Assembly (NCBI GenBank): GCA_021775475.1
Contig: JAJFHS010000053.1
Span: 44,271 to 108,270 of the forward strand
From: Hyphomicrobiales bacterium
Lineage (GTDB): Bacteria; Pseudomonadota; Alphaproteobacteria; Rhizobiales; JAJFHR01
DNA: 64,000 nucleotides
Reading direction: 5' to 3'
Below the pieces are notes generated by a model. The model saw only the letters and a program-made list of their open reading frames with translations, was not told the DNA's origin and did not search any database. Of the stretch, positions 4,090 to 44,343 are shown one piece after another. Position 1 is the first letter of the stretch; every line of letters starts with the position of its first letter. A program made the translations under genes and the position numbers.

Positions 4090-4875
4090 ATGGCTGACAT
4101 TTTTTCACTCGACAATCTTTTAACACTGGCAATGCTGGTCCTGCTACAGGCGGTTTTAGGGTTTGATAATCTGTTGTATATTGCCCTTGAATCGAAGAGC
4201 GTAGCCCCCGAAAGTCAGGCCCGCGTGCGCCGGTTGGGCATCATCATCGCCCTTGTCTTGCGTGTTGTTTTGCTGTTGGCCCTGACCCAGGCGGTACAAT
4301 ATTTCCAGGCACCGTTTTTCTCATTAAAACTACCCGGCATATTCGAAATCACTTTAAACTTTCACAGCTTGATCGTGCTCGCAGGCGGGGTATTTATCAT
4401 TTACGCCGCACTCAAGGAGATAATTCACATGTTGTCTGTCGACGATCTGGGAGTGGCGACTGATACATCAAAATTGCGCTCGGTAACCTCAGCGGTAACC
4501 TGGATAGTTGCCATGAACGTGGTGTTTTCCTTCGATTCAATTCTGTCAGCCATGGCCCTGACCGACAAGTTCTGGATCATGGCGTTTGCGGTGGTCATAT
4601 CAGGAATATTGATGTTGATGCTGATCGATAATGTGGCGCAATTTTTGACCAAAAACCGCATGTACGAAGTGCTCGGCCTGTTTATCCTGTTTATTGTCGG
4701 CATATTGCTGCTGTCCGATGGCGGCAAACTGGCGCAACTGTCCTTTTTCGACTACCCGATCGAACCGATGGCCAAATCAACATTTTATTTCGTCATCGCC
4801 GTTCTGGTCATCGTCGATGTCATTCAGGGCCGCTACCAGAAAAAACTCGACCGCCAGCGAAAACGCGGTGGTTGA
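4090..4875 (+). CDS. TerC family integral membrane protein
   Basis: 261-aa polytopic membrane protein with the N-terminal LQAVLGFDNLLYIAL motif typical of the TerC/YjbE family. Confidence 0.7.
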   Translation: MADIFSLDNLLTLAMLVLLQAVLGFDNLLYIALESKSVAPESQARVRRLGIIIALVLRVVLLLALTQAVQYFQAPFFSLKLPGIFEITLNFHSLIVLAGGVFIIYAALKEIIHMLSVDDLGVATDTSKLRSVTSAVTWIVAMNVVFSFDSILSAMALTDKFWIMAFAVVISGILMLMLIDNVAQFLTKNRMYEVLGLFILFIVGILLLSDGGKLAQLSFFDYPIEPMAKSTFYFVIAVLVIVDVIQGRYQKKLDRQRKRGG

Positions 4876-18716: not shown

Positions 18717-18744
18717 GTGACAAGGCAGCAGTGATGCTTATAAT
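18717..18744 (+). promoter_or_regulatory. Sigma70-like promoter candidate (GTGACA-N16-TATAAT) implying a ~230-nt leader for the EF-G-like gene
   Basis: Perfect TATAAT at 18739-18744 and a near-consensus -35 at 18717-18722. No ORF lies between it and 18979. Confidence 0.4.
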
Positions 18745-18978
18745 GCATCTCGTTCTATCTATTCAAGTTTACTTCTGCATTTCCGTCACAAGAGTTTTGC
18801 CCCCATGATTATGCCGGGGCGTAAAATTCAACTCGGAACCCTTTTTGTTTAAATAAAGCATCAAATAATTATCATGGGCCTTGCCTTCTGGCCTGAGCCG
18901 TGGAACCATACAATTCTATCGACAGCCCCGGATTGAGGGGACGGTGACCTCTCATCTATAAACCGTTGGGAGGAAGTT

Positions 18979-21027
18979 ATGGGTAACGAAGGCGCTAGAC
19001 CAAGCGGCCCTCGGTGCATCGCACTAATTGGGCCATATTTAAGCGGAAAAACCACACTTTTAGAATCAATTTTAGCTCGTACAGGCGCTGTTAATCGCCA
19101 GGGCAAGGTCTCTGATGGCAATACCATTGGGGACGCATCGCCCGAAGCGCGCGCCCACGGCATGAGCGTCGAGCTCAATGTAGCCTCGATAGATTACCAC
19201 GGTGAACAATACACATTTATTGATTGTCCCGGTTCAATTGAATTCCTGCAGGAGCAAATTCCCGCCCTGCCCGCCGTTGACGCAGCCATTGTGGTGTGCG
19301 AGCCCGATGACAAGAAAATACCGGCATTACAACTGATTTTAAAACAGCTTGATGAGTTAGGAATTCCGCGCATTTTATTCCTCAACAAAATAGATAAAAC
19401 CGAGATACGAGTGCGCGACATCCTCGGCACCCTGCAACCGGCAAGTGAAAAACCGCTGGTGTTGCGCCAGATACCAATCTGGGAAGACAATGTTGTTACC
19501 GGCTGTGTTGATCTCGCGCTGGAGCGCGCTTTTATCTATCGTAAACATGCCCAAAGTGAAGTGATTGACCTGCCCGACGGCGTTTTGGACCGTAAGGGAG
19601 AAGCGCGATATTCCATGCTCGAACAACTGGCGGACTATGATGATGAGTTGATGGAAGTGCTGCTCGAAGACATTGAGCCAGCCCAGGATCAGGTATTTGG
19701 TGATCTCGCCCAGGAGCTGCGCAACGGACAGATTTGCCCGGTCCTGTTGGGTTCAGCTGAAAACGGCAATGGTATTCGCCGCCTGCTCAAGGCCATTCGC
19801 CATGAAGTGCCAACGGTGGAGGAGACCGCCGAACGCTTGAGCCTGAGTAATAGTGAGTGTGTGGCACAGATTCTCAAAACCTATCACACCACCCATGGTG
19901 GCAAACTATCCCTGGTGCGGGTTTTAACCGGTGAGTTGAAAGATGGCACGGTTCTCTATGACAGCGGTGGCAATAATGAGCGCATTTCCGGCGTTTTTAC
20001 TCTGCTGGGCCAAGAACCTTCCAAGGTATCGCGTGCTGTCGCTGGAGATACGGTGGCTTTAGGGCGTATGGAGAGTTTTCAAACCGGTGAAACCCTAACC
20101 AGCATCAAGTGTGAATGTGAACAAGTTGCACCACTTGAAAGCCTGACGCCTGTCTATGGTTTGGCCATCAGTGCCGTGGAGCGCAATGATGAAGTAAAAC
20201 TCACCGGTGCCATTGCTAAAATTATCGAGGAAGACCCGTCCATCCAGCTGGTCCACAGCCCCGACACCAATGAAATGGTAATCTGGGGTCAGGGCGAGAT
20301 GCACCTGCGCGTAACGCTGGAGCGTCTGGAAGGAAAATACGGTATCGCTGCAAAAACACGTCGGCGTAAAATTCCTTATAAAGAAACCATTCGCAAATCC
20401 ATCACAATTCGGGGTCGCCACAAAAAACAAAGCGGCGGACACGGGCAATTTGGTGATGTGGAAGTGGAGATCAAACCACTGCCACGCGGCTCCGGCTTTG
20501 ATTTCAGTCAGGCGATTACCGGGGGCGTCGTGCCAAAGCAATATATTCCCGCCGTTGAAAACGGCATCAAGGAATATCTGGCGCAAGGGCCGCTGGGTTT
20601 CCCGGTTGTTGATCTCTCCGCCAAGCTGATCGATGGCTCCTACCATGCGGTAGATTCGTCCGAACAGGCATTTAAGACCGCGGGCAGAATAGCCATGGCC
20701 GAAGGACTGCCAAAATGTTCTCCGGTATTACTGGAGCCAGTCCTGTCAGTCTCGTTTAATGTTCCCAATGATGCAACGGCGAAAATAAACGCAATTATTT
20801 CCAGCCGTCGCGGCCAGATTTTAGGCTTCGATGCCAGACCCGGATGGCCGGGATGGGATGTGGTCAATGCACATTTACCGGAAACCGAAATCCAGAACAT
20901 AATTGTCGAGGTGCGCTCAGCCACCGCCGGCGTCGGCACATTTACCTATGAGTTCGATCATTTATCCGAGCTGACCGGAAAACTTGCCGAACAGGTTTTG
21001 TCGGAAAGCAAAGCCGAGGCGGCCTGA
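18979..21027 (+). CDS. Elongation factor G paralog (five-domain translational GTPase) lacking the catalytic His
   Basis: G1 is GPYLSGKTT, G3 is DCPGSIEF (canonical DTPGHVDF) and G4 is NKID. EF-G domain II-V similarity runs through the C-terminus. GGGAGGAAG RBS. Confidence 0.85.
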   Translation: MGNEGARPSGPRCIALIGPYLSGKTTLLESILARTGAVNRQGKVSDGNTIGDASPEARAHGMSVELNVASIDYHGEQYTFIDCPGSIEFLQEQIPALPAVDAAIVVCEPDDKKIPALQLILKQLDELGIPRILFLNKIDKTEIRVRDILGTLQPASEKPLVLRQIPIWEDNVVTGCVDLALERAFIYRKHAQSEVIDLPDGVLDRKGEARYSMLEQLADYDDELMEVLLEDIEPAQDQVFGDLAQELRNGQICPVLLGSAENGNGIRRLLKAIRHEVPTVEETAERLSLSNSECVAQILKTYHTTHGGKLSLVRVLTGELKDGTVLYDSGGNNERISGVFTLLGQEPSKVSRAVAGDTVALGRMESFQTGETLTSIKCECEQVAPLESLTPVYGLAISAVERNDEVKLTGAIAKIIEEDPSIQLVHSPDTNEMVIWGQGEMHLRVTLERLEGKYGIAAKTRRRKIPYKETIRKSITIRGRHKKQSGGHGQFGDVEVEIKPLPRGSGFDFSQAITGGVVPKQYIPAVENGIKEYLAQGPLGFPVVDLSAKLIDGSYHAVDSSEQAFKTAGRIAMAEGLPKCSPVLLEPVLSVSFNVPNDATAKINAIISSRRGQILGFDARPGWPGWDVVNAHLPETEIQNIIVEVRSATAGVGTFTYEFDHLSELTGKLAEQVLSESKAEAA

Positions 21028-22163: not shown

Positions 22164-22315
22164 CATCAAGACACCCGGCGCATTGAATTATAAAAACTAA
22201 TCCATTGTACGGTAAAATTCGTTTGCACTCTAAAATCATGTGGCGATACATTCTTGGCAACACGCAAATTAAGCTATTGCGATTTCTGCCCGTTTGAATT
22301 TTTCCAGAGGTGCAT

Positions 22316-23149
22316 ATGAATATTTTAAAAATAGCCGCATTTAGCGACGGCAACACCGGTGGCAATCCCGCCGGTGTTGTGGTTGGGGCAGAATTACCCG
22401 ACACGACAACGATGCAGAAGATTGCCGCTGATGTCGGGTTTTCTGAAACGGTGTTTGCGGCACCGGCTGACAACGACGGACAATGGATAGTGCGCTATTT
22501 CTCGCCTGAGACAGAAGTACCATTTTGCGGCCACGCGACAATTGCACTGGGCGCTGCATTGGCACTCCAGGATGGCGATGGTGTCTATAGTCTGAGCCTT
22601 TCCGAGGCAGACATCTCAGTTGAGGGCAAGCGTAACGGTGAATTTATTTCAGCGGCGTTACAATCACCACCAACCAGCAGCGCCAAAGCTGATGATACGG
22701 TGGTTCAGGCCGCTCTTGATTTGTTCGGGTACAATAATGACGACCTCAATCGCGAGATCCCGCCTGCTATCATTAACGCTGGTGCAAATCATCTAATTCT
22801 TGTCCTAAAGGATCGCGCGCGCCTGTCGCAAATGACTTACGATCTCAATGACGGTCGCACTCTTATGAAGAAATACGGGTTGGTGACTATCTCGCTGGTC
22901 ACAGCCCAAACAGACCAACTCTTTCATGCCCGCAACCCTTTTGCCTCTGGCGGCGTGCTTGAAGATCCCGCTACCGGTGCCGCAGCCGCTGCACTGGCGG
23001 GGTATTTGCGCGATCTTGGCTGGCCGCATCAAGGTGTTATAGATATCGTTCAAGGCGAGGACATGGGCCAGAAATCGCTGTTGCGTGCTGAAATACCAAC
23101 CCAGACCGGGTCATCCATCCGAGTTTCGGGAACGGCCAGAGTTATGTGA
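22316..23149 (+). CDS. PhzF family phenazine-biosynthesis-like isomerase/epimerase
   Basis: PhzF-family motifs (AFSDGNTGGNPAGVV, ETVF, FCGHATIA). AGAGG lies 5 nt before ATG 22316, while the ORF-track start at 22310 is a GTG. Confidence 0.85.
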   Translation: MNILKIAAFSDGNTGGNPAGVVVGAELPDTTTMQKIAADVGFSETVFAAPADNDGQWIVRYFSPETEVPFCGHATIALGAALALQDGDGVYSLSLSEADISVEGKRNGEFISAALQSPPTSSAKADDTVVQAALDLFGYNNDDLNREIPPAIINAGANHLILVLKDRARLSQMTYDLNDGRTLMKKYGLVTISLVTAQTDQLFHARNPFASGGVLEDPATGAAAAALAGYLRDLGWPHQGVIDIVQGEDMGQKSLLRAEIPTQTGSSIRVSGTARVM

Positions 23150-23180: not shown

Positions 23181-23220
23181 AAAAAAACCGGGTGGCTGTT
23201 GGGCAGCGCACCCGGTTTTT
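23181..23220. terminator. Bidirectional Rho-independent terminator (A7-ACCGGGTG...CACCCGGT-T5)
   Basis: 8-bp GC-rich stem flanked by an A-run and a T-run. It serves phzF (+) and sRNA candidate A (-). Confidence 0.75.
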
Positions 23221-23349
23221 CCTATAAGAGCGCCTGTTGCCAAGCGCCGCAGACCGACCAGCTGGGAGGGAGGGCGGGTCTACTTACGAAACGCGTCTTA
23301 GGGGGAGGAAGAGAGGCGTTTCGTCTAACTTACGATCTTTGATCGCGTT
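23181..23349 (-). ncRNA. sRNA candidate A: hairpins with C/U-rich loops (CCCUCCCUCCC; CUUCCUCCCCC) plus a terminator; ar14/'cuckoo'/CcsR-like architecture
   Basis: On the minus strand, stems ACGAAACGC/GCGTTTCGT and CAGACC/GGTCTA enclose C-rich loops, followed by a GCGC stem and a terminator with U-tail. It is about 80% identical to copy B, 256 bp away. The 5' end is approximate. Confidence 0.6.
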
Positions 23350-23438
23350 AATATATATTTAGGTATGCCAATCGAATATTTAAAGATGATGATTTGCATA
23401 GCTGCTATGCGCCAAACGCATAAGTAATGTTCGCAAAG

Positions 23439-23606
23439 AAAAAACCGGGCTCGCTTTTTCAGCGCGCCCGGTTCTTCCAATAAGTGCGCCTGTTGCCAGG
23501 CGCCGCAGACCGACCAGCTGGGAGGGAGGGCGGGTCTGCTCAACAAAACGCTTCTTTAGGGGGAGGGAGGAGAAGCGTTTCGTCTAACTCTCGATCAATG
23601 ATCGCG
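23439..23606 (-). ncRNA. sRNA candidate B: tandem paralog of A, with loops CCUCCCUCCCCC and CCCUCCCUCCC
   Basis: Perfect stems AAACGCTTCT/AGAAGCGTTT and GCAGACC/GGTCTGC, a GCGCC/GGCGC stem, and a terminator ACCGGGC...GCCCGGT followed by U6CU3 on the minus strand. A stem difference relative to copy A keeps the pairing. It lies just downstream of lysR on the same strand. Confidence 0.6.
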
Positions 23607-23717
23607 TTGGCCTATATGTGCCTATTTCATCGCAGATGCGCAAGCGCCTATTGAACATATGAGCTATGCGTTTTGCGCATACCGACAAGTCATTGTTTTT
23701 AATCACCAAAACCGGAT

Positions 23718-24614
23718 TTAGAAAGACCATTGCCGGGCTTTACCAAGTAGAAAATCGCGAAAAACGATCATCCTGGCTGAATTGCGTATTTCCTCGGCAT
23801 AGACAAAATAAGTATCGAAACTTGGCGTTTCTACATCCGTCAATATTCTCACCAGTCCGGCTTTTGCCTCGTCGCGTACGATATAGTCAGGCAATGCAGC
23901 AATACCAATACCATTTTGGGCAGCTCGCTTGATGCCATCAACACTGTTGATGCTTAAAATGGGCTCCCGCGGTTTGCCACCCTTGCGGCCATGGTTTTCC
24001 AGCCAGTTGATGTGTTTGAGATACGGCGGCGTCATAACGCCAAAGGAAACGAAGCGGTGATCGTCAAGCTCTTCGATCGTTACAGGAGCACCGTGTTCTG
24101 AGATGTAGCCGGGTGAGGCGTAAATGTGAAAATGCACCGTGAACAGTTTGCGCTGAATAAGCTCGGCCTGCACCGGTTTACGCAACCGTATCGCCACGTC
24201 AGCTTCACGCATACCAAGATCGAGTTCCGCGTCCTGCAACATCAACTGAACGTTGATATCGGGATAAAGTTCAATAAACTCGCTCAATCGCGGCGTCAGC
24301 CAGTTTGAGCCAAGGCCGACGGTGGTGGTAACGCGTAAGATACCGGAAGGTTTTTCCTTGGAATCGCGCAACATGGTTTTTGCTGCTTCCAGCTGGGTAA
24401 ACACCTCGTGCGCGGTACGAAACAGCAATTCTCCCTGTTCGGTCAATATCAATCCGCGCGCATGGCGATGAAACAGCGGCACTTTAAGGTCTTTTTCCAA
24501 AGACGATACCTGGCGCGAAACCGCTGACTGGCTTAGGCCAATGATTTCGCCAGCGCGGGTGAAACTACCAGCTTCAGCAACCGACCGAAATATTTTGAGT
24601 TTTTCCCAGTCCAT
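23718..24614 (-). CDS. LysR family transcriptional regulator
   Basis: N-terminal LysR HTH (FTRAGEIIGLSQSAVSRQVSSLE) plus a substrate-binding domain. It starts 1 nt after the trxB stop. Confidence 0.9.
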   Translation of the reverse strand: MDWEKLKIFRSVAEAGSFTRAGEIIGLSQSAVSRQVSSLEKDLKVPLFHRHARGLILTEQGELLFRTAHEVFTQLEAAKTMLRDSKEKPSGILRVTTTVGLGSNWLTPRLSEFIELYPDINVQLMLQDAELDLGMREADVAIRLRKPVQAELIQRKLFTVHFHIYASPGYISEHGAPVTIEELDDHRFVSFGVMTPPYLKHINWLENHGRKGGKPREPILSINSVDGIKRAAQNGIGIAALPDYIVRDEAKAGLVRILTDVETPSFDTYFVYAEEIRNSARMIVFRDFLLGKARQWSF

Positions 24615-24615
24615 A

Positions 24616-26197
<1,582 letters not shown>

Positions 26198-26209
26198 GAT
26201 CAGACTTCC

Positions 26210-27238
26210 TTATTTGGTTGTGGCTTGTTGCCGGTGCCAGCGGGTGGCAATTTCGCGAGCAATTTCCATTGTTGCATCCATCGGTTCATAGTCCCAGGTT
26301 TCAATGACACCCTCGAAATTTCTTGTAATACCTTTGTTGCGCAATTGTTCGTGGAAATGATTAAATTTCTTCGATCCCGCACCGGGATGAAAAACATAGA
26401 CCGGTTTTCCCGTGGCAATCGCCTCGCCGGTCATATTAACTGAATCTGCGGTGACAATGAGACCATCGCAAAGAGCTAGATAATCAAAATACGGATTTTC
26501 GCCCGACCCGTCCCATATTTGATGTGGCGCATGTTTAATCGCTTCACGAATGACCTCAATAATCCTCTCATCCGTCCGCCGCGACGGCGTGACCAGAAAA
26601 CTGACACCACTTTGTGCAGCTTTTGAAAGATATTGGGCAAATTTTGCGCAAACCTCAGCATTGAAACTATAGACTGAATTTTTGCCTCCGACAGAAATGG
26701 CAATGCACGGTCTGGTCATCGCACTCATGTCAATTTTTCCCGATTTCCGCGCCTGGTTCAAGCGGTGTTCGGTGATGCGATGGGGCGCAAGCAGGGTGGA
26801 AATCAAATTATCACCGCTTAATTTGTTGAGATCATGATCTGATATCCAGATGAGGTTGGCGGTTTTATTTCCAGATCCCGGGTTTTGCAGAAATACAGTG
26901 AGAGTATTCCTGTTGCCGTATTTTGTTAAGGCGCGAATGTAAGGCACCGCCTGTCGGCTGGAGCCGATAATTATTTCCGGCAATGGTCCGGCAAACTGTC
27001 CCGTCGTCCCACCAATGCGGGTGTTGGGGGGGGTGGGACCCCATGGTGACAGATATCGCCACGGGATTGAGGGTGTTACGGTTTTATATTCAATATCGAG
27101 GCCCAAAGCCTCCATAATCCCTTCGCACTGAATGACATGTCCGGCTGCACCGTTGGTTACAATCCATCCTCTTTTGCCACGCAAAAGAGGATCGCAGTTT
27201 TCAGTGCTGGCCGTGGTGTGCTGGGAGTCCGAAAACAT
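26210..27238 (-). CDS. ELM1/DUF1022 family putative glycosyltransferase
   Basis: 342 aa. The N-terminal TNGAAGHVIQCEGIMEALGL resembles the 'mitochondrial fission ELM1' family signature as I recall it. Unverified. Confidence 0.5.
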   Translation of the reverse strand: MFSDSQHTTASTENCDPLLRGKRGWIVTNGAAGHVIQCEGIMEALGLDIEYKTVTPSIPWRYLSPWGPTPPNTRIGGTTGQFAGPLPEIIIGSSRQAVPYIRALTKYGNRNTLTVFLQNPGSGNKTANLIWISDHDLNKLSGDNLISTLLAPHRITEHRLNQARKSGKIDMSAMTRPCIAISVGGKNSVYSFNAEVCAKFAQYLSKAAQSGVSFLVTPSRRTDERIIEVIREAIKHAPHQIWDGSGENPYFDYLALCDGLIVTADSVNMTGEAIATGKPVYVFHPGAGSKKFNHFHEQLRNKGITRNFEGVIETWDYEPMDATMEIAREIATRWHRQQATTK

Positions 27239-27318
27239 ATACTTATGTGTCTACTTGTGTAAAACAGGCGCTATGGGTACCATATGATTAATCCATACCA
27301 CAAGAGGATGCGACATAT

Positions 27319-27804
27319 ATGATCAAGGTAAAGCTTGATGACATTGACTGGCTGATACTGGCTGAACTGCAAAGCAATGGTCGCATGACCAATGTGGAAC
27401 TGGCCATTCGCGTCGGCGTATCACCGCCACCGTGTTTAAGACGCGTGCGGGCTTTGGAAGAAGCCGGTATGATCACCGGCTACCGCGCCACCCTGGATGC
27501 CGCCATGCTAGGGTTTGACGTTACCGCCTTTGCCATGGTCGGCCTGCACTCTCAGGCCGAAACCGATCTGCTGGCCTTTGAAGAAAAAGTGCGTGCATGG
27601 CCGATTGTAAGAGAATGCCATATGCTGTCAGGCGAAGTTGATTTTATTTTGAAATGCGTCGCGCGGGATTTGCAATCATTTCAGGACTTTATCATCCATG
27701 ACCTAACCGCCACACCCAATGTGGATGTCATCAAAACCTCGCTGACAATCCGCCAGTCCAAATACGAACCCGGCGCCCCCTTCACGGATGCAACACCACT
27801 CTAA
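27319..27804 (+). CDS. Lrp/AsnC family transcriptional regulator
   Basis: DDIDWLILAELQSNGRMTNVELAIRVGVSPPPCLRRVRALEEAGMI HTH plus a RAM domain. Confidence 0.9.
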   Translation: MIKVKLDDIDWLILAELQSNGRMTNVELAIRVGVSPPPCLRRVRALEEAGMITGYRATLDAAMLGFDVTAFAMVGLHSQAETDLLAFEEKVRAWPIVRECHMLSGEVDFILKCVARDLQSFQDFIIHDLTATPNVDVIKTSLTIRQSKYEPGAPFTDATPL

Positions 27805-44215: not shown

Positions 44216-44343
44216 CTTCTTCGTCATCCTCGGGCTTGACCCGAGGATCCATTCCTCAATTTTCGCGGCCAAATGGCAGTTTCTTTGTTTTCGAAAGCGC
44301 AACGGTATAGATCCTCGGGTCAAGCCCGAGGATGACGAAGAAG
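44216..44343. mobile_element. MITE-like element, copy 2 (inverted relative to copy 1)
   Basis: Terminal inverted repeats CTTCTTCGTCATCCTCGGGCTTGACCCGAGGAT / ATCCTCGGGTCAAGCCCGAGGATGACGAAGAAG. The interior matches the reverse complement of the copy-1 interior at about 80%. It lies between the convergent SDR and araC 3' ends. Confidence 0.75.

Follow-up and report, generated by a model that had tools for sequence, protein, structure and literature searches.

Two similar sequences, here termed units A and B, lie downstream of a thioredoxin reductase gene (trxB) and a LysR-type regulator gene on contig JAJFHS010000053.1 of a Hyphomicrobiales bacterium, and both fold on the minus strand into elaborate structures. 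They were analysed within the window, i.e. the whole stretch of 64,000 nucleotides (nt) that was examined (positions 44,271 to 108,270 of the contig); coordinates below are those of the window unless another locus is named. The regulator is an orthologue of LsrB/VtlR, a convergent phzF gene flanks the units on the other side (Table 1), and the locus is a real, well-supported tandem pair of small RNA (sRNA) genes. It is likely that the two are LsrB-driven, trans-acting anti-Shine-Dalgarno sRNA genes, situated in the slot of the AbcR sRNAs and similar in shape to the cuckoo sRNAs.

A tandem repeat with a conserved fold

An earlier reading of this DNA from the letters alone (the sequence-only reading) had described two minus-strand units of about 165 nt, some 80% identical and 256 bp apart. 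The description holds: the units are 171 and 169 nt long and 81% identical over their full length, and a repeat finder detects direct-repeat blocks of 82% and 79% identity with start-to-start spacings of 256 and 259 bp. Each unit consists of five parts. Two hairpins with C/U-rich loops, a GC stem and a terminator with a U-run had been recognized before; a short 5' hairpin (CGAUC/GAUCG, 5-6 bp in both units) had not been listed. Hairpin 1 comprises 43 nt, 14 bp and a 15-nt loop (CCUCCCUCCCCCUAA) in unit A, and 39 nt, 12 bp and a 13-nt loop (CUUCCUCCCCCUA) in unit B. It is joined by a 2-nt linker to hairpin 2, which in both units has 35 nt, 10 bp and the 13-nt loop CUCCCUCCCAGCU. The GC stem (7-8 bp, GCAA loop) and a terminator of 17-18 bp with a run of U6-7 follow.

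Table 1. Positions of the sRNA units, their control elements and the flanking genes
Feature	Position	Strand	Basis
sRNA unit A, upstream copy, 171 nt	23438..23608	-	Fold; model R1 score 191.8 bits
Unit A 5' hairpin	23604-23592	-	Fold
Unit A hairpin 1	23584-23542	-	Fold
Unit A hairpin-1 loop CCUCCCUCCCCCUAA, proposed anti-Shine-Dalgarno site 1	23556..23570	-	Unpaired in minimum-energy and consensus structures
Unit A hairpin 2	23539-23505	-	Fold
Unit A hairpin-2 loop CUCCCUCCCAGCU, proposed anti-Shine-Dalgarno site 2	23516..23528	-	Fold; includes CUCCCA, the AbcR 'M1' hexamer
Unit A GC stem	23503-23486	-	Fold
Unit A terminator	23478-23438	-	Fold
Unit A tripartite operator ATGC-N7-GCAT-N7-ATG(T), -72 to -47, putative LsrB site	23655..23680	-	Inverted repeat I2
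Unit A core promoter: CTTGCG (23644-23639) and CACATAT (23620-23614), spacing 18-19 nt	23614..23644	-	Clade conservation
sRNA unit B, downstream copy, 169 nt	23181..23349	-	Fold; model R1 score 179.4 bits
Unit B 5' hairpin	23345-23333	-	Fold
Unit B hairpin 1 (loop 23311-23299)	23324-23286	-	Fold
Unit B hairpin 2 (loop 23272-23260)	23283-23249	-	Fold
Unit B GC stem	23248-23229	-	Fold
Unit B terminator	23222-23181	-	Fold
Unit B tripartite operator ATGC-N7-GCAT-N7-ATGC, perfect match, -72 to -47	23396..23421	-	Upstream alignment
Unit B core promoter CTTTAA-N16-CCTAAAT, RpoH1-like	23357..23385	-	Inference only
lsrB/vtlR orthologue, LysR-type regulator, 298 amino acids, no cysteine	23718..24614	-	PDB 9HH1 match
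trxB, thioredoxin-disulfide reductase	24616..25560	-	TIGR01292, 401 bits (cut-off 343)
phzF (PhzF family), convergent neighbour, intact in window	22310-23149	+	

That these are separately terminated minus-strand genes with anti-Shine-Dalgarno-like loops, as had been proposed, is borne out by folding (z values near -7 are confined to the minus strand) and by covariation in the clade. The two minus-strand folds reach -73.5 kcal/mol (z -6.95) and -80.9 kcal/mol (z -7.61), and no shuffled sequence was as stable; for the plus strand, z values of -2.26 and -2.90 mark only a weak advantage over shuffled sequence. In a model-guided alignment, A3, 96.5% of the cells pair and changes occur on both sides in 35 of 50 base pairs, figures that lean towards the model to which A3 was fitted, with one spurious row counting against the structure. 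None of 500 shuffles attained these values, and controls with slid partners gave 32-45% pairing and 6-13 pairs with two-sided changes. Covarying pairs number 12 of 12 in hairpin 1, 7 of 10 in hairpin 2 and five of seven in the GC stem. Folds made without any alignment agree with A3: the five-hairpin layout is found in eight sequences, among them relatives whose LsrB is only 60-70% identical. Covariation support thus comes from orthologues; the stem position thought to be compensated between the two copies shows only a one-sided G-U to G-C change, together with a C-C mismatch in unit B.

At least 12 further contigs carry the pair, or a single unit, at the corresponding locus. A pair follows the same LysR gene at six loci (L002, L004, L085, L088, L091 and L093) and a single unit at two (L087 and L092), where the contig may stop before the second copy; all eight carry a unit A orthologue, and unit B is 95% identical to the second unit of L002. 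Five loci with a LysR protein 60-70% identical (L090, L005, L171, L172 and L114) have one unit each with stem sequences that are entirely different; each of these units has five hairpins, of which hairpins 1 and 2 bear C-rich loops. The C-rich core of the unit A hairpin-1 loop is invariant throughout the clade, as is the stretch UCCCUCCCAGCUGGU of the hairpin-2 loop (11 units). A covariance model of the unit, R1, made from clade sequences, matches the 64 kb at exactly two places, units A and B, and the motif CCCTCCCTCCC, with at most one mismatch, occurs five times in the window, always within the units, against 0.59 expected.

How did the pair arise? The sequences suggest an old duplication with occasional gene conversion between copies. 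Copies within a genome are 80-90% identical and positional orthologues of the window and L002 are 95% identical; at greater distances the identity pattern is mixed, units 1 and 2 of L085, for example, being 90% identical.

Two other candidates at the locus were rejected. The only open reading frame in the intergenic region, which lies over the units (23325-23546, 73 amino acids), has stop codons in relatives and no Pfam match. A mobile repeat was likewise discarded, as only two copies are found in the 64 kb and both are syntenic. The terminator scan called only the plus-strand face of the unit B terminator and missed the minus-strand terminators, because their stems have interior loops, which the scan disallows. 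The called structure lies 32 nt past the phzF stop codon; it is flanked by an A-run and, on its opposite side, by a U-run, and therefore probably ends both convergent transcripts.

Promoters, the putative operator and its regulator

What might drive transcription of the units? An ATATA-containing box, which had been suggested as a possible mark of the 5' end, stands at about -12 to -5 relative to ACGCGAUC in both units; it fits a -10 element, and ACGCGAUC fits a 5' end. When the 100 nt upstream of all 18 units of the new type were aligned on the conserved 5' end AACGCGAUC, the tripartite element ATGC-N7-GCAT-N7-ATGC was found at a fixed distance (-72 to -47) in 18 of 18, with a -35-like CTTG at -36. 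All first units of the clade have the arrangement CTTG(T/C)G-N18-CACATAT, with CTTG(T/C)G at -36 and CACATAT at about -12. Second units have CTT(G/T)A(G/A)-N16-CC(C/T)A.. at equivalent positions, and in relatives the form is CTTGAG-N16-CC(C/T)A... The spacing in unit A suggests a promoter that needs an activator, because 18-19 nt separate CTTGCG from CACATAT. The putative core promoter of unit B resembles the RpoH1 consensus CTTGAA-N16-CCTATAT (PMC8844928), and because of this likeness the two copies may respond differently. A generic sigma-70 scan of the locus found no promoter.

Published LsrB sites are located at -61 to -49 in the abcR1 promoter (PMC8844928) and at -72 to -57 in the nfeR1 promoter (PMC10746234). 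The GCAT-N7-AT core of the element described here is at -61 to -49, the abcR1 position, and its left half overlaps the nfeR1-type position. It also includes the core of the published VtlR box, GCAT-N3-TG-N3-T (PMC7486931), with the boxes reading GCAT-AGC-TC-ATA-T in unit A and GCAT-AGC-AG-CTA-T in unit B.

The wider distribution of the element was assessed in 157 lsrB loci, 80 from species-representative genomes and 77 distant ones from metagenomes; the metagenome scan yielded only three close relatives, the remaining 77 loci having at most 65% LsrB identity. The tripartite element, with at most one mismatch, lies within 500 nt downstream of lsrB at 59 of the 157 loci, against three occurrences in a control region 3.4 times larger. 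At the same tolerance the window has five matches against 0.9 expected. The two with N7 spacing are those upstream of units A and B; the other three are one-mismatch matches with N6 spacing, one of them the palindromic plus-strand face of the unit B box. Without the third half-site, ATGC-N7-GCAT occurs at chance frequency in the window, and only the tripartite form is specific. The element is also found upstream of cuckoo-type sRNAs in Oricola and Ahrensia and of many AbcR-type sRNAs. The locus suggests an extended LsrB operator, ATGC-N7-GCAT-N7-ATGC. A third ATGC-N7-GCAT palindrome in the window (ATGCTTATAATGCAT, 18734-18748) lies about 230 nt upstream of a gene for an EF-G paralogue and has no third half-site.

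The LysR protein matches PDB 9HH1, the cryo-EM structure of Agrobacterium tumefaciens LsrB (PMC11975290), over residues 1-298 with E = 1.1e-116 (next LysR, 2e-37), and is therefore an LsrB/VtlR orthologue. Its gene starts a single base from the end of trxB; a trxB-lsrB operon is typical of Rhizobiales (PMC11975290). The sequence-only reading had seen in this operon a link to redox stress. The link to the regulator has gained substance, as LsrB is a published activator of AbcR1 and NfeR1 (PMC8844928, PMC10746234), but the redox part is weakened: the protein contains no cysteine, and V, A, A and V stand at the positions of A. tumefaciens C144, C236, C244 and C273, so that thiol-based redox sensing is unsupported. 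Of 136 LsrB orthologues collected, 63 are cysteine-free. Because cysteines are kept at the C144 and C273 positions in only six and eight of the 136, respectively, the LsrB thiol-switch model cannot be general.

The surroundings vary on one side of the pair. In relatives phzF is a degraded 3' remnant (L002, about 4440-4650), is absent (L004) or is parted from the sRNAs by a RimK-like gene and a small open reading frame (L085, L088), and the RNA units are retained in all of these. Genes for a 2OG-Fe(II) oxygenase and an Elm1-like protein (PF06258) lie upstream of trxB, tightly spaced on the same strand (25586-27804), with a divergently transcribed AsnC/Lrp-type regulator. Clade members L002, L004 and L087 share this arrangement, and the operon may therefore extend beyond trxB-lsrB.

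Family relationships and alternative readings

In Sinorhizobium meliloti the intergenic region by lsrB holds the tandem sRNAs AbcR1 and AbcR2; AbcR1 depends strictly on LsrB, and AbcR2 is driven by RpoH1 (PMC8844928). LsrB is also indispensable for NfeR1, a member of the ar14 family (PMC10746234), and in Brucella and Agrobacterium the corresponding role falls to VtlR (PMC7486931). The AbcR signature GUUCCCCUCUGGAAG is present just downstream of lsrB at 41 of the 80 genome loci and 34 of the 77 metagenome loci, and in Chelatococcus it occurs there in tandem. The slot is thus normally AbcR-bearing, and the units of the window occupy an AbcR slot. This was overlooked when the units were assigned from the letters alone to the ar14/cuckoo family. 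Tandem sRNAs are the norm at the AbcR1/AbcR2 (ar15) locus.

The slot has other occupants too. Cuckoo-type sRNAs lie directly downstream of lsrB at two of the 157 loci, L039 (3992-4125, Oricola) and L062 (1560-1661, Ahrensia). The Oricola sRNA has three CCUCCUCCC hairpins and scores 49.4 bits on ar14, and that of Ahrensia has two and scores 55.2 bits, both just below threshold. Their box, ATGC-N6/7-GCAT-N7-ATGC, fits the published VtlR box exactly. Six more loci (L079, L120, L169, L119, L030 and L122) carry box-driven sRNA-like variants downstream of lsrB that have a window-like 5' hairpin (AAUCGCAGUUUGCGAUC), C-rich loops and other middle modules; neither Rfam nor R1 nor R2, a broad AbcR covariance model, detects them. 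Among loci L006-L083, Rfam ar15 reaches its gathering score in one of 20 (Pleomorphomonas, 44.3 bits), at least 11 of the same 20 carry the AbcR signature, and clear AbcRs score about 25 bits. The Rfam ar15 model appears too narrow outside Rhizobiaceae.

Do the units belong to any described family? An Rfam search, which the sequence-only reading had recommended, gave no match at gathering level anywhere in the window. In a search of 1 kb, ar14 aligns with both units over its full length at 30.6 bits (E 0.0012) and 27.9 bits (E 0.0046), against a gathering score of 58.8. Scores of 28-30 bits on ar14 are not discriminating, because a genuine AbcR (L173) scores 24.9 on ar14 and 25.5 on ar15; they register little beyond 'C-rich hairpin loops plus a terminator'. 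In the same 1-kb search ar15 (RF02345, gathering 40 bits) had no match at E up to 10, but clear AbcRs from outside Rhizobiaceae, at about 25 bits, likewise fall short of its gathering score. CcsR1 (RF02791) had no match at E up to 10 either, and no DUF1127 gene is nearby.

The likeness to NfeR1 and the other ar14/cuckoo sRNAs (RF02344) is one of shape: C/U-rich anti-Shine-Dalgarno loops of 13-15 nt are displayed by neighbouring hairpins, 35-43 nt long and only 2 nt apart. Hairpins 1 and 2 conform to the geometric rules of the published cuckoo matcher (two to four adjacent hairpins, each 24-50 nt long with a minimum of 6 bp and a 9-27-nt loop, and no more than 10 nt between them; PMC4615179). 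Both groups occur in Hyphomicrobiales, the alignment is full length though sub-threshold, and NfeR1 is activated by LsrB from a -72 to -57 site (PMC10746234), a position that the putative operator described here overlaps. The assignment to ar14/cuckoo is only partly supported: the score is about half the gathering level, no loop contains an exact CCUCCUCCC (the best, in hairpin 1 of unit A, has eight of nine bases) and the CIN1 context is lacking. The loops have a period of four (CCCU), where those of cuckoo RNAs have a period of three (CCU). A cuckoo RNA is composed of motif hairpins only, whereas here the motif is borne by two of five hairpins, and the 5' hairpin, the GC stem and the separate terminator are without it; in three-hairpin cuckoo members the last module doubles as terminator (PMC4615179). 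The primary cuckoo neighbourhood, CIN1, adjoins an OG1/DUF1127 gene, whereas lsrB and phzF flank the units here. An lsrB-adjacent location goes unreported in the main text of the cuckoo paper, which names no LysR or thioredoxin neighbour (PMC4615179).

With AbcR1/AbcR2 (ar15) the units share the location, intergenic beside lsrB/vtlR and often tandem (PMC8844928), the kind and position of a promoter element (-61 to -49), the possession of their own terminators, and the AbcR M1 hexamer CUCCCA in a hairpin loop, here that of hairpin 2, where R2 aligns M1. Differing promoters within the pair, LsrB with sigma-70 as against RpoH-like, are plausible. Collinear alignment with the AbcR model is seen for the L090-type relatives. 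The differences concern the RNA itself: it is about 170 nt long rather than 114-121 nt, it has an extra 5' hairpin, it scores 14-23 bits on R2, and its second C-rich site is displayed in a 35-nt hairpin, whereas M2 of AbcR is single-stranded. Characteristic of the AbcR family are Hfq binding and the repression of mRNAs for ABC transporters. The Rhodobacter sRNAs CcsR1-4 are also tandem repeated copies with two C-rich-loop hairpins per unit, but they are about 70-80 nt long, co-transcribed with DUF1127 from an RpoHI/HII promoter and processed out (PMC4615179, PMC8034643), while each unit of the window has its own operator, promoter and terminator. VrsA of A. tumefaciens, which can be likened to the units by description only, has an sRNA promoter with a VtlR/LsrB box and is directly activated by the regulator; its gene is at a different genomic position, antisense to atu4670 (PMC7486931). 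Membership of neither ar14 nor ar15 is established, and the window type is better regarded as a new structural variant among the LsrB-controlled anti-Shine-Dalgarno sRNAs.

Could the units nevertheless be true ar14/cuckoo members, descended from a cuckoo paralogue that moved into the slot or displaced an AbcR, as apparently happened in Oricola and Ahrensia, with the AbcR-like intermediates unrelated to them? This is rather unlikely. It would accord with the E values of the two full-length ar14 alignments, with the matcher geometry of hairpins 1 and 2 (PMC4615179), with the LsrB dependence of the ar14 member NfeR1 (PMC10746234) and with the cuckoo-type sRNAs of L039 and L062, which sit in the slot behind the same operator. 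But an ar14 score of this level is not specific, as the AbcR of L173 shows, three hairpins including the terminator lack the motif and no loop has it exactly, CcsR1 gives no match and no DUF1127/OG1 gene adjoins the units; in addition, R1 gives the Oricola cuckoo RNA only 14.9 bits.

A second alternative, of low probability, is that the RNAs have no promoters of their own and are cut from the 3' untranslated region of trxB-lsrB, as CcsR1-4 are from the DUF1127 (ccaF1) mRNA. The units and the operon are on one strand, the 109 nt between the lsrB stop codon and unit A contain no terminator-like hairpin with a U-run, and the unit A terminator would be the first of the operon. Each unit, however, has a conserved operator, CTTG at -36 and a -10-like box at fixed distances, and unit B retains these elements although it lies behind the strong terminator of unit A. 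The lsrB-adjacent sRNAs of studied relatives use their own LsrB- or RpoH1-dependent promoters (PMC8844928). For unit A, processing and an own promoter are mutually compatible.

That there is no sRNA locus, and only stacked terminators, the plus-strand 3' untranslated region of phzF (an alternative raised in the sequence-only reading) or a repetitive palindromic element, is hardly credible: the bidirectional unit B terminator close behind the phzF stop codon would suit it, as would a spurious plus-strand model match of 27.3 bits from the partly palindromic hairpins, but the plus strand folds only weakly better than shuffles, its terminator would halt phzF transcripts before the units, the units are retained in relatives with only a phzF remnant or no phzF, their two copies are the only ones in 64 kb and are syntenic, covariation keeps all five helices, and the loops are conserved far beyond the needs of a terminator.

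Proposed function, origin and significance

The preferred reading is that of two independent minus-strand sRNA genes 3' of the trxB-lsrB operon, each of which would have its own promoter and intrinsic terminator. The product of the adjacent lsrB is predicted to bind the operator and activate both genes, by analogy with abcR1 and nfeR1 in Sinorhizobium and abcR1 and vrsA in Agrobacterium/Brucella, which are activated by LsrB/VtlR (PMC8844928, PMC10746234, PMC7486931). With its RpoH-like core promoter, unit B may answer conditions other than those of unit A, as in the case of AbcR1 and AbcR2. The C/U-rich loops would pair in trans with GGGAGG-type Shine-Dalgarno regions of many mRNAs and block initiation, a mode of action demonstrated for AbcR1/2 and NfeR1 (PMC8844928, PMC10746234). 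As to targets, the mRNAs of the EF-G paralogue and of an ATP-grasp protein can be named speculatively. The ribosome-binding region of the EF-G paralogue (CCGUUGGGAGG, 18950-18985, plus strand, start at 18979) has 9-11 bp of complementarity with the invariant hairpin-2 loop CCUCCCAGC(U)GG, and relatives show synteny of the EF-G-MsrP gene pair with the sRNA locus.

Several points weigh against this reading. R2 gives the units 22.7 and 14.0 bits, no better than the 21.3 bits of the cuckoo-type L039, while held-out AbcRs score 50-71 bits; built from 35 units, R2 has a weak consensus structure (12 pairs) and is mostly a sequence model. M2 (GUUCCC within GUUCCCCUCUGGAAG) is absent from all units of the window clade. 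Since direct similarity is low and M2 is lacking, homology with AbcR rests on intermediates and synteny, and C-rich loops can arise by convergence. The putative LsrB box has TC (unit A) or AG (unit B) where the VtlR consensus has TG. No terminator was found between lsrB and unit A, and operon read-through may therefore contribute to unit A. A target scan within the window gave many internal false starts, no transporter genes and no convincing partner. The regulator is free of cysteine, and the 5' ends, the LsrB dependence and the targets are predictions.

Where, then, does this sRNA type come from? On R1, L090 scores 50 bits, L005 30.4, L114 29.1 and L013 26.2; on R2, L013 scores 32.6, L005 27.1 and L171 26.0 bits. 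R2 aligns the L090/L005-type units such that M1 of AbcR falls on the hairpin-1 loop and M2 (GUUCCCCUC) on the hairpin-2 loop, whose M2-like version is GUCCCCCUC in the L090 type; the version in L013 is CUUCUCCCUCUGGCAGG. L013 unites the 5' hairpin and GCAA stem of the new type with an AbcR-like M2, and it has a C-rich hairpin. L173, with an LsrB as near that of the window as are the LsrB proteins of L005 and L090, carries a plain AbcR, and neighbouring LsrB lineages have further box-driven variants with a similar 5' hairpin. A rough neighbour-joining tree of LsrB, covering 140 of 174 proteins with L039 and L114 missing, was used only to choose these neighbours. Divergence in place from an AbcR-like ancestor is more economical than replacement by a cuckoo paralogue.

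A broader scheme can be put forward tentatively, as a possibility that is less probable than not. AbcR (ar15) and cuckoo/NfeR1 (ar14) sRNAs, at present two Rfam families, may represent branches of a single LsrB-driven superfamily with anti-Shine-Dalgarno action that originated and diversified beside lsrB as C-rich modules were gained, lost and refolded, and the window type, with L013 and the L090 type, might be a surviving intermediate. In this scheme the ancestral signal would not have been thiol oxidation, because most LsrB orthologues outside Rhizobiaceae are without cysteines.

In rhizobia, Agrobacterium and Brucella, LsrB/VtlR and its sRNAs (AbcR1/2, NfeR1, VrsA) govern nutrient uptake, symbiosis and virulence, and work on them has hitherto been confined to those few genera. 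The biology suggested here is what the known systems lead one to expect; what is new is the proposed ar14-ar15 continuum, the putative extended operator and the cysteine-free LsrB. Which signal does a cysteine-free LsrB sense? The module of regulator and adjacent sRNA extends across Hyphomicrobiales, and current Rfam models miss most of the lsrB-adjacent sRNAs. Its sRNA partner is structurally plastic, with AbcR, cuckoo and five-hairpin types behind one conserved operator, and the set of intermediates can be used to ask how modular anti-Shine-Dalgarno sRNAs evolve.

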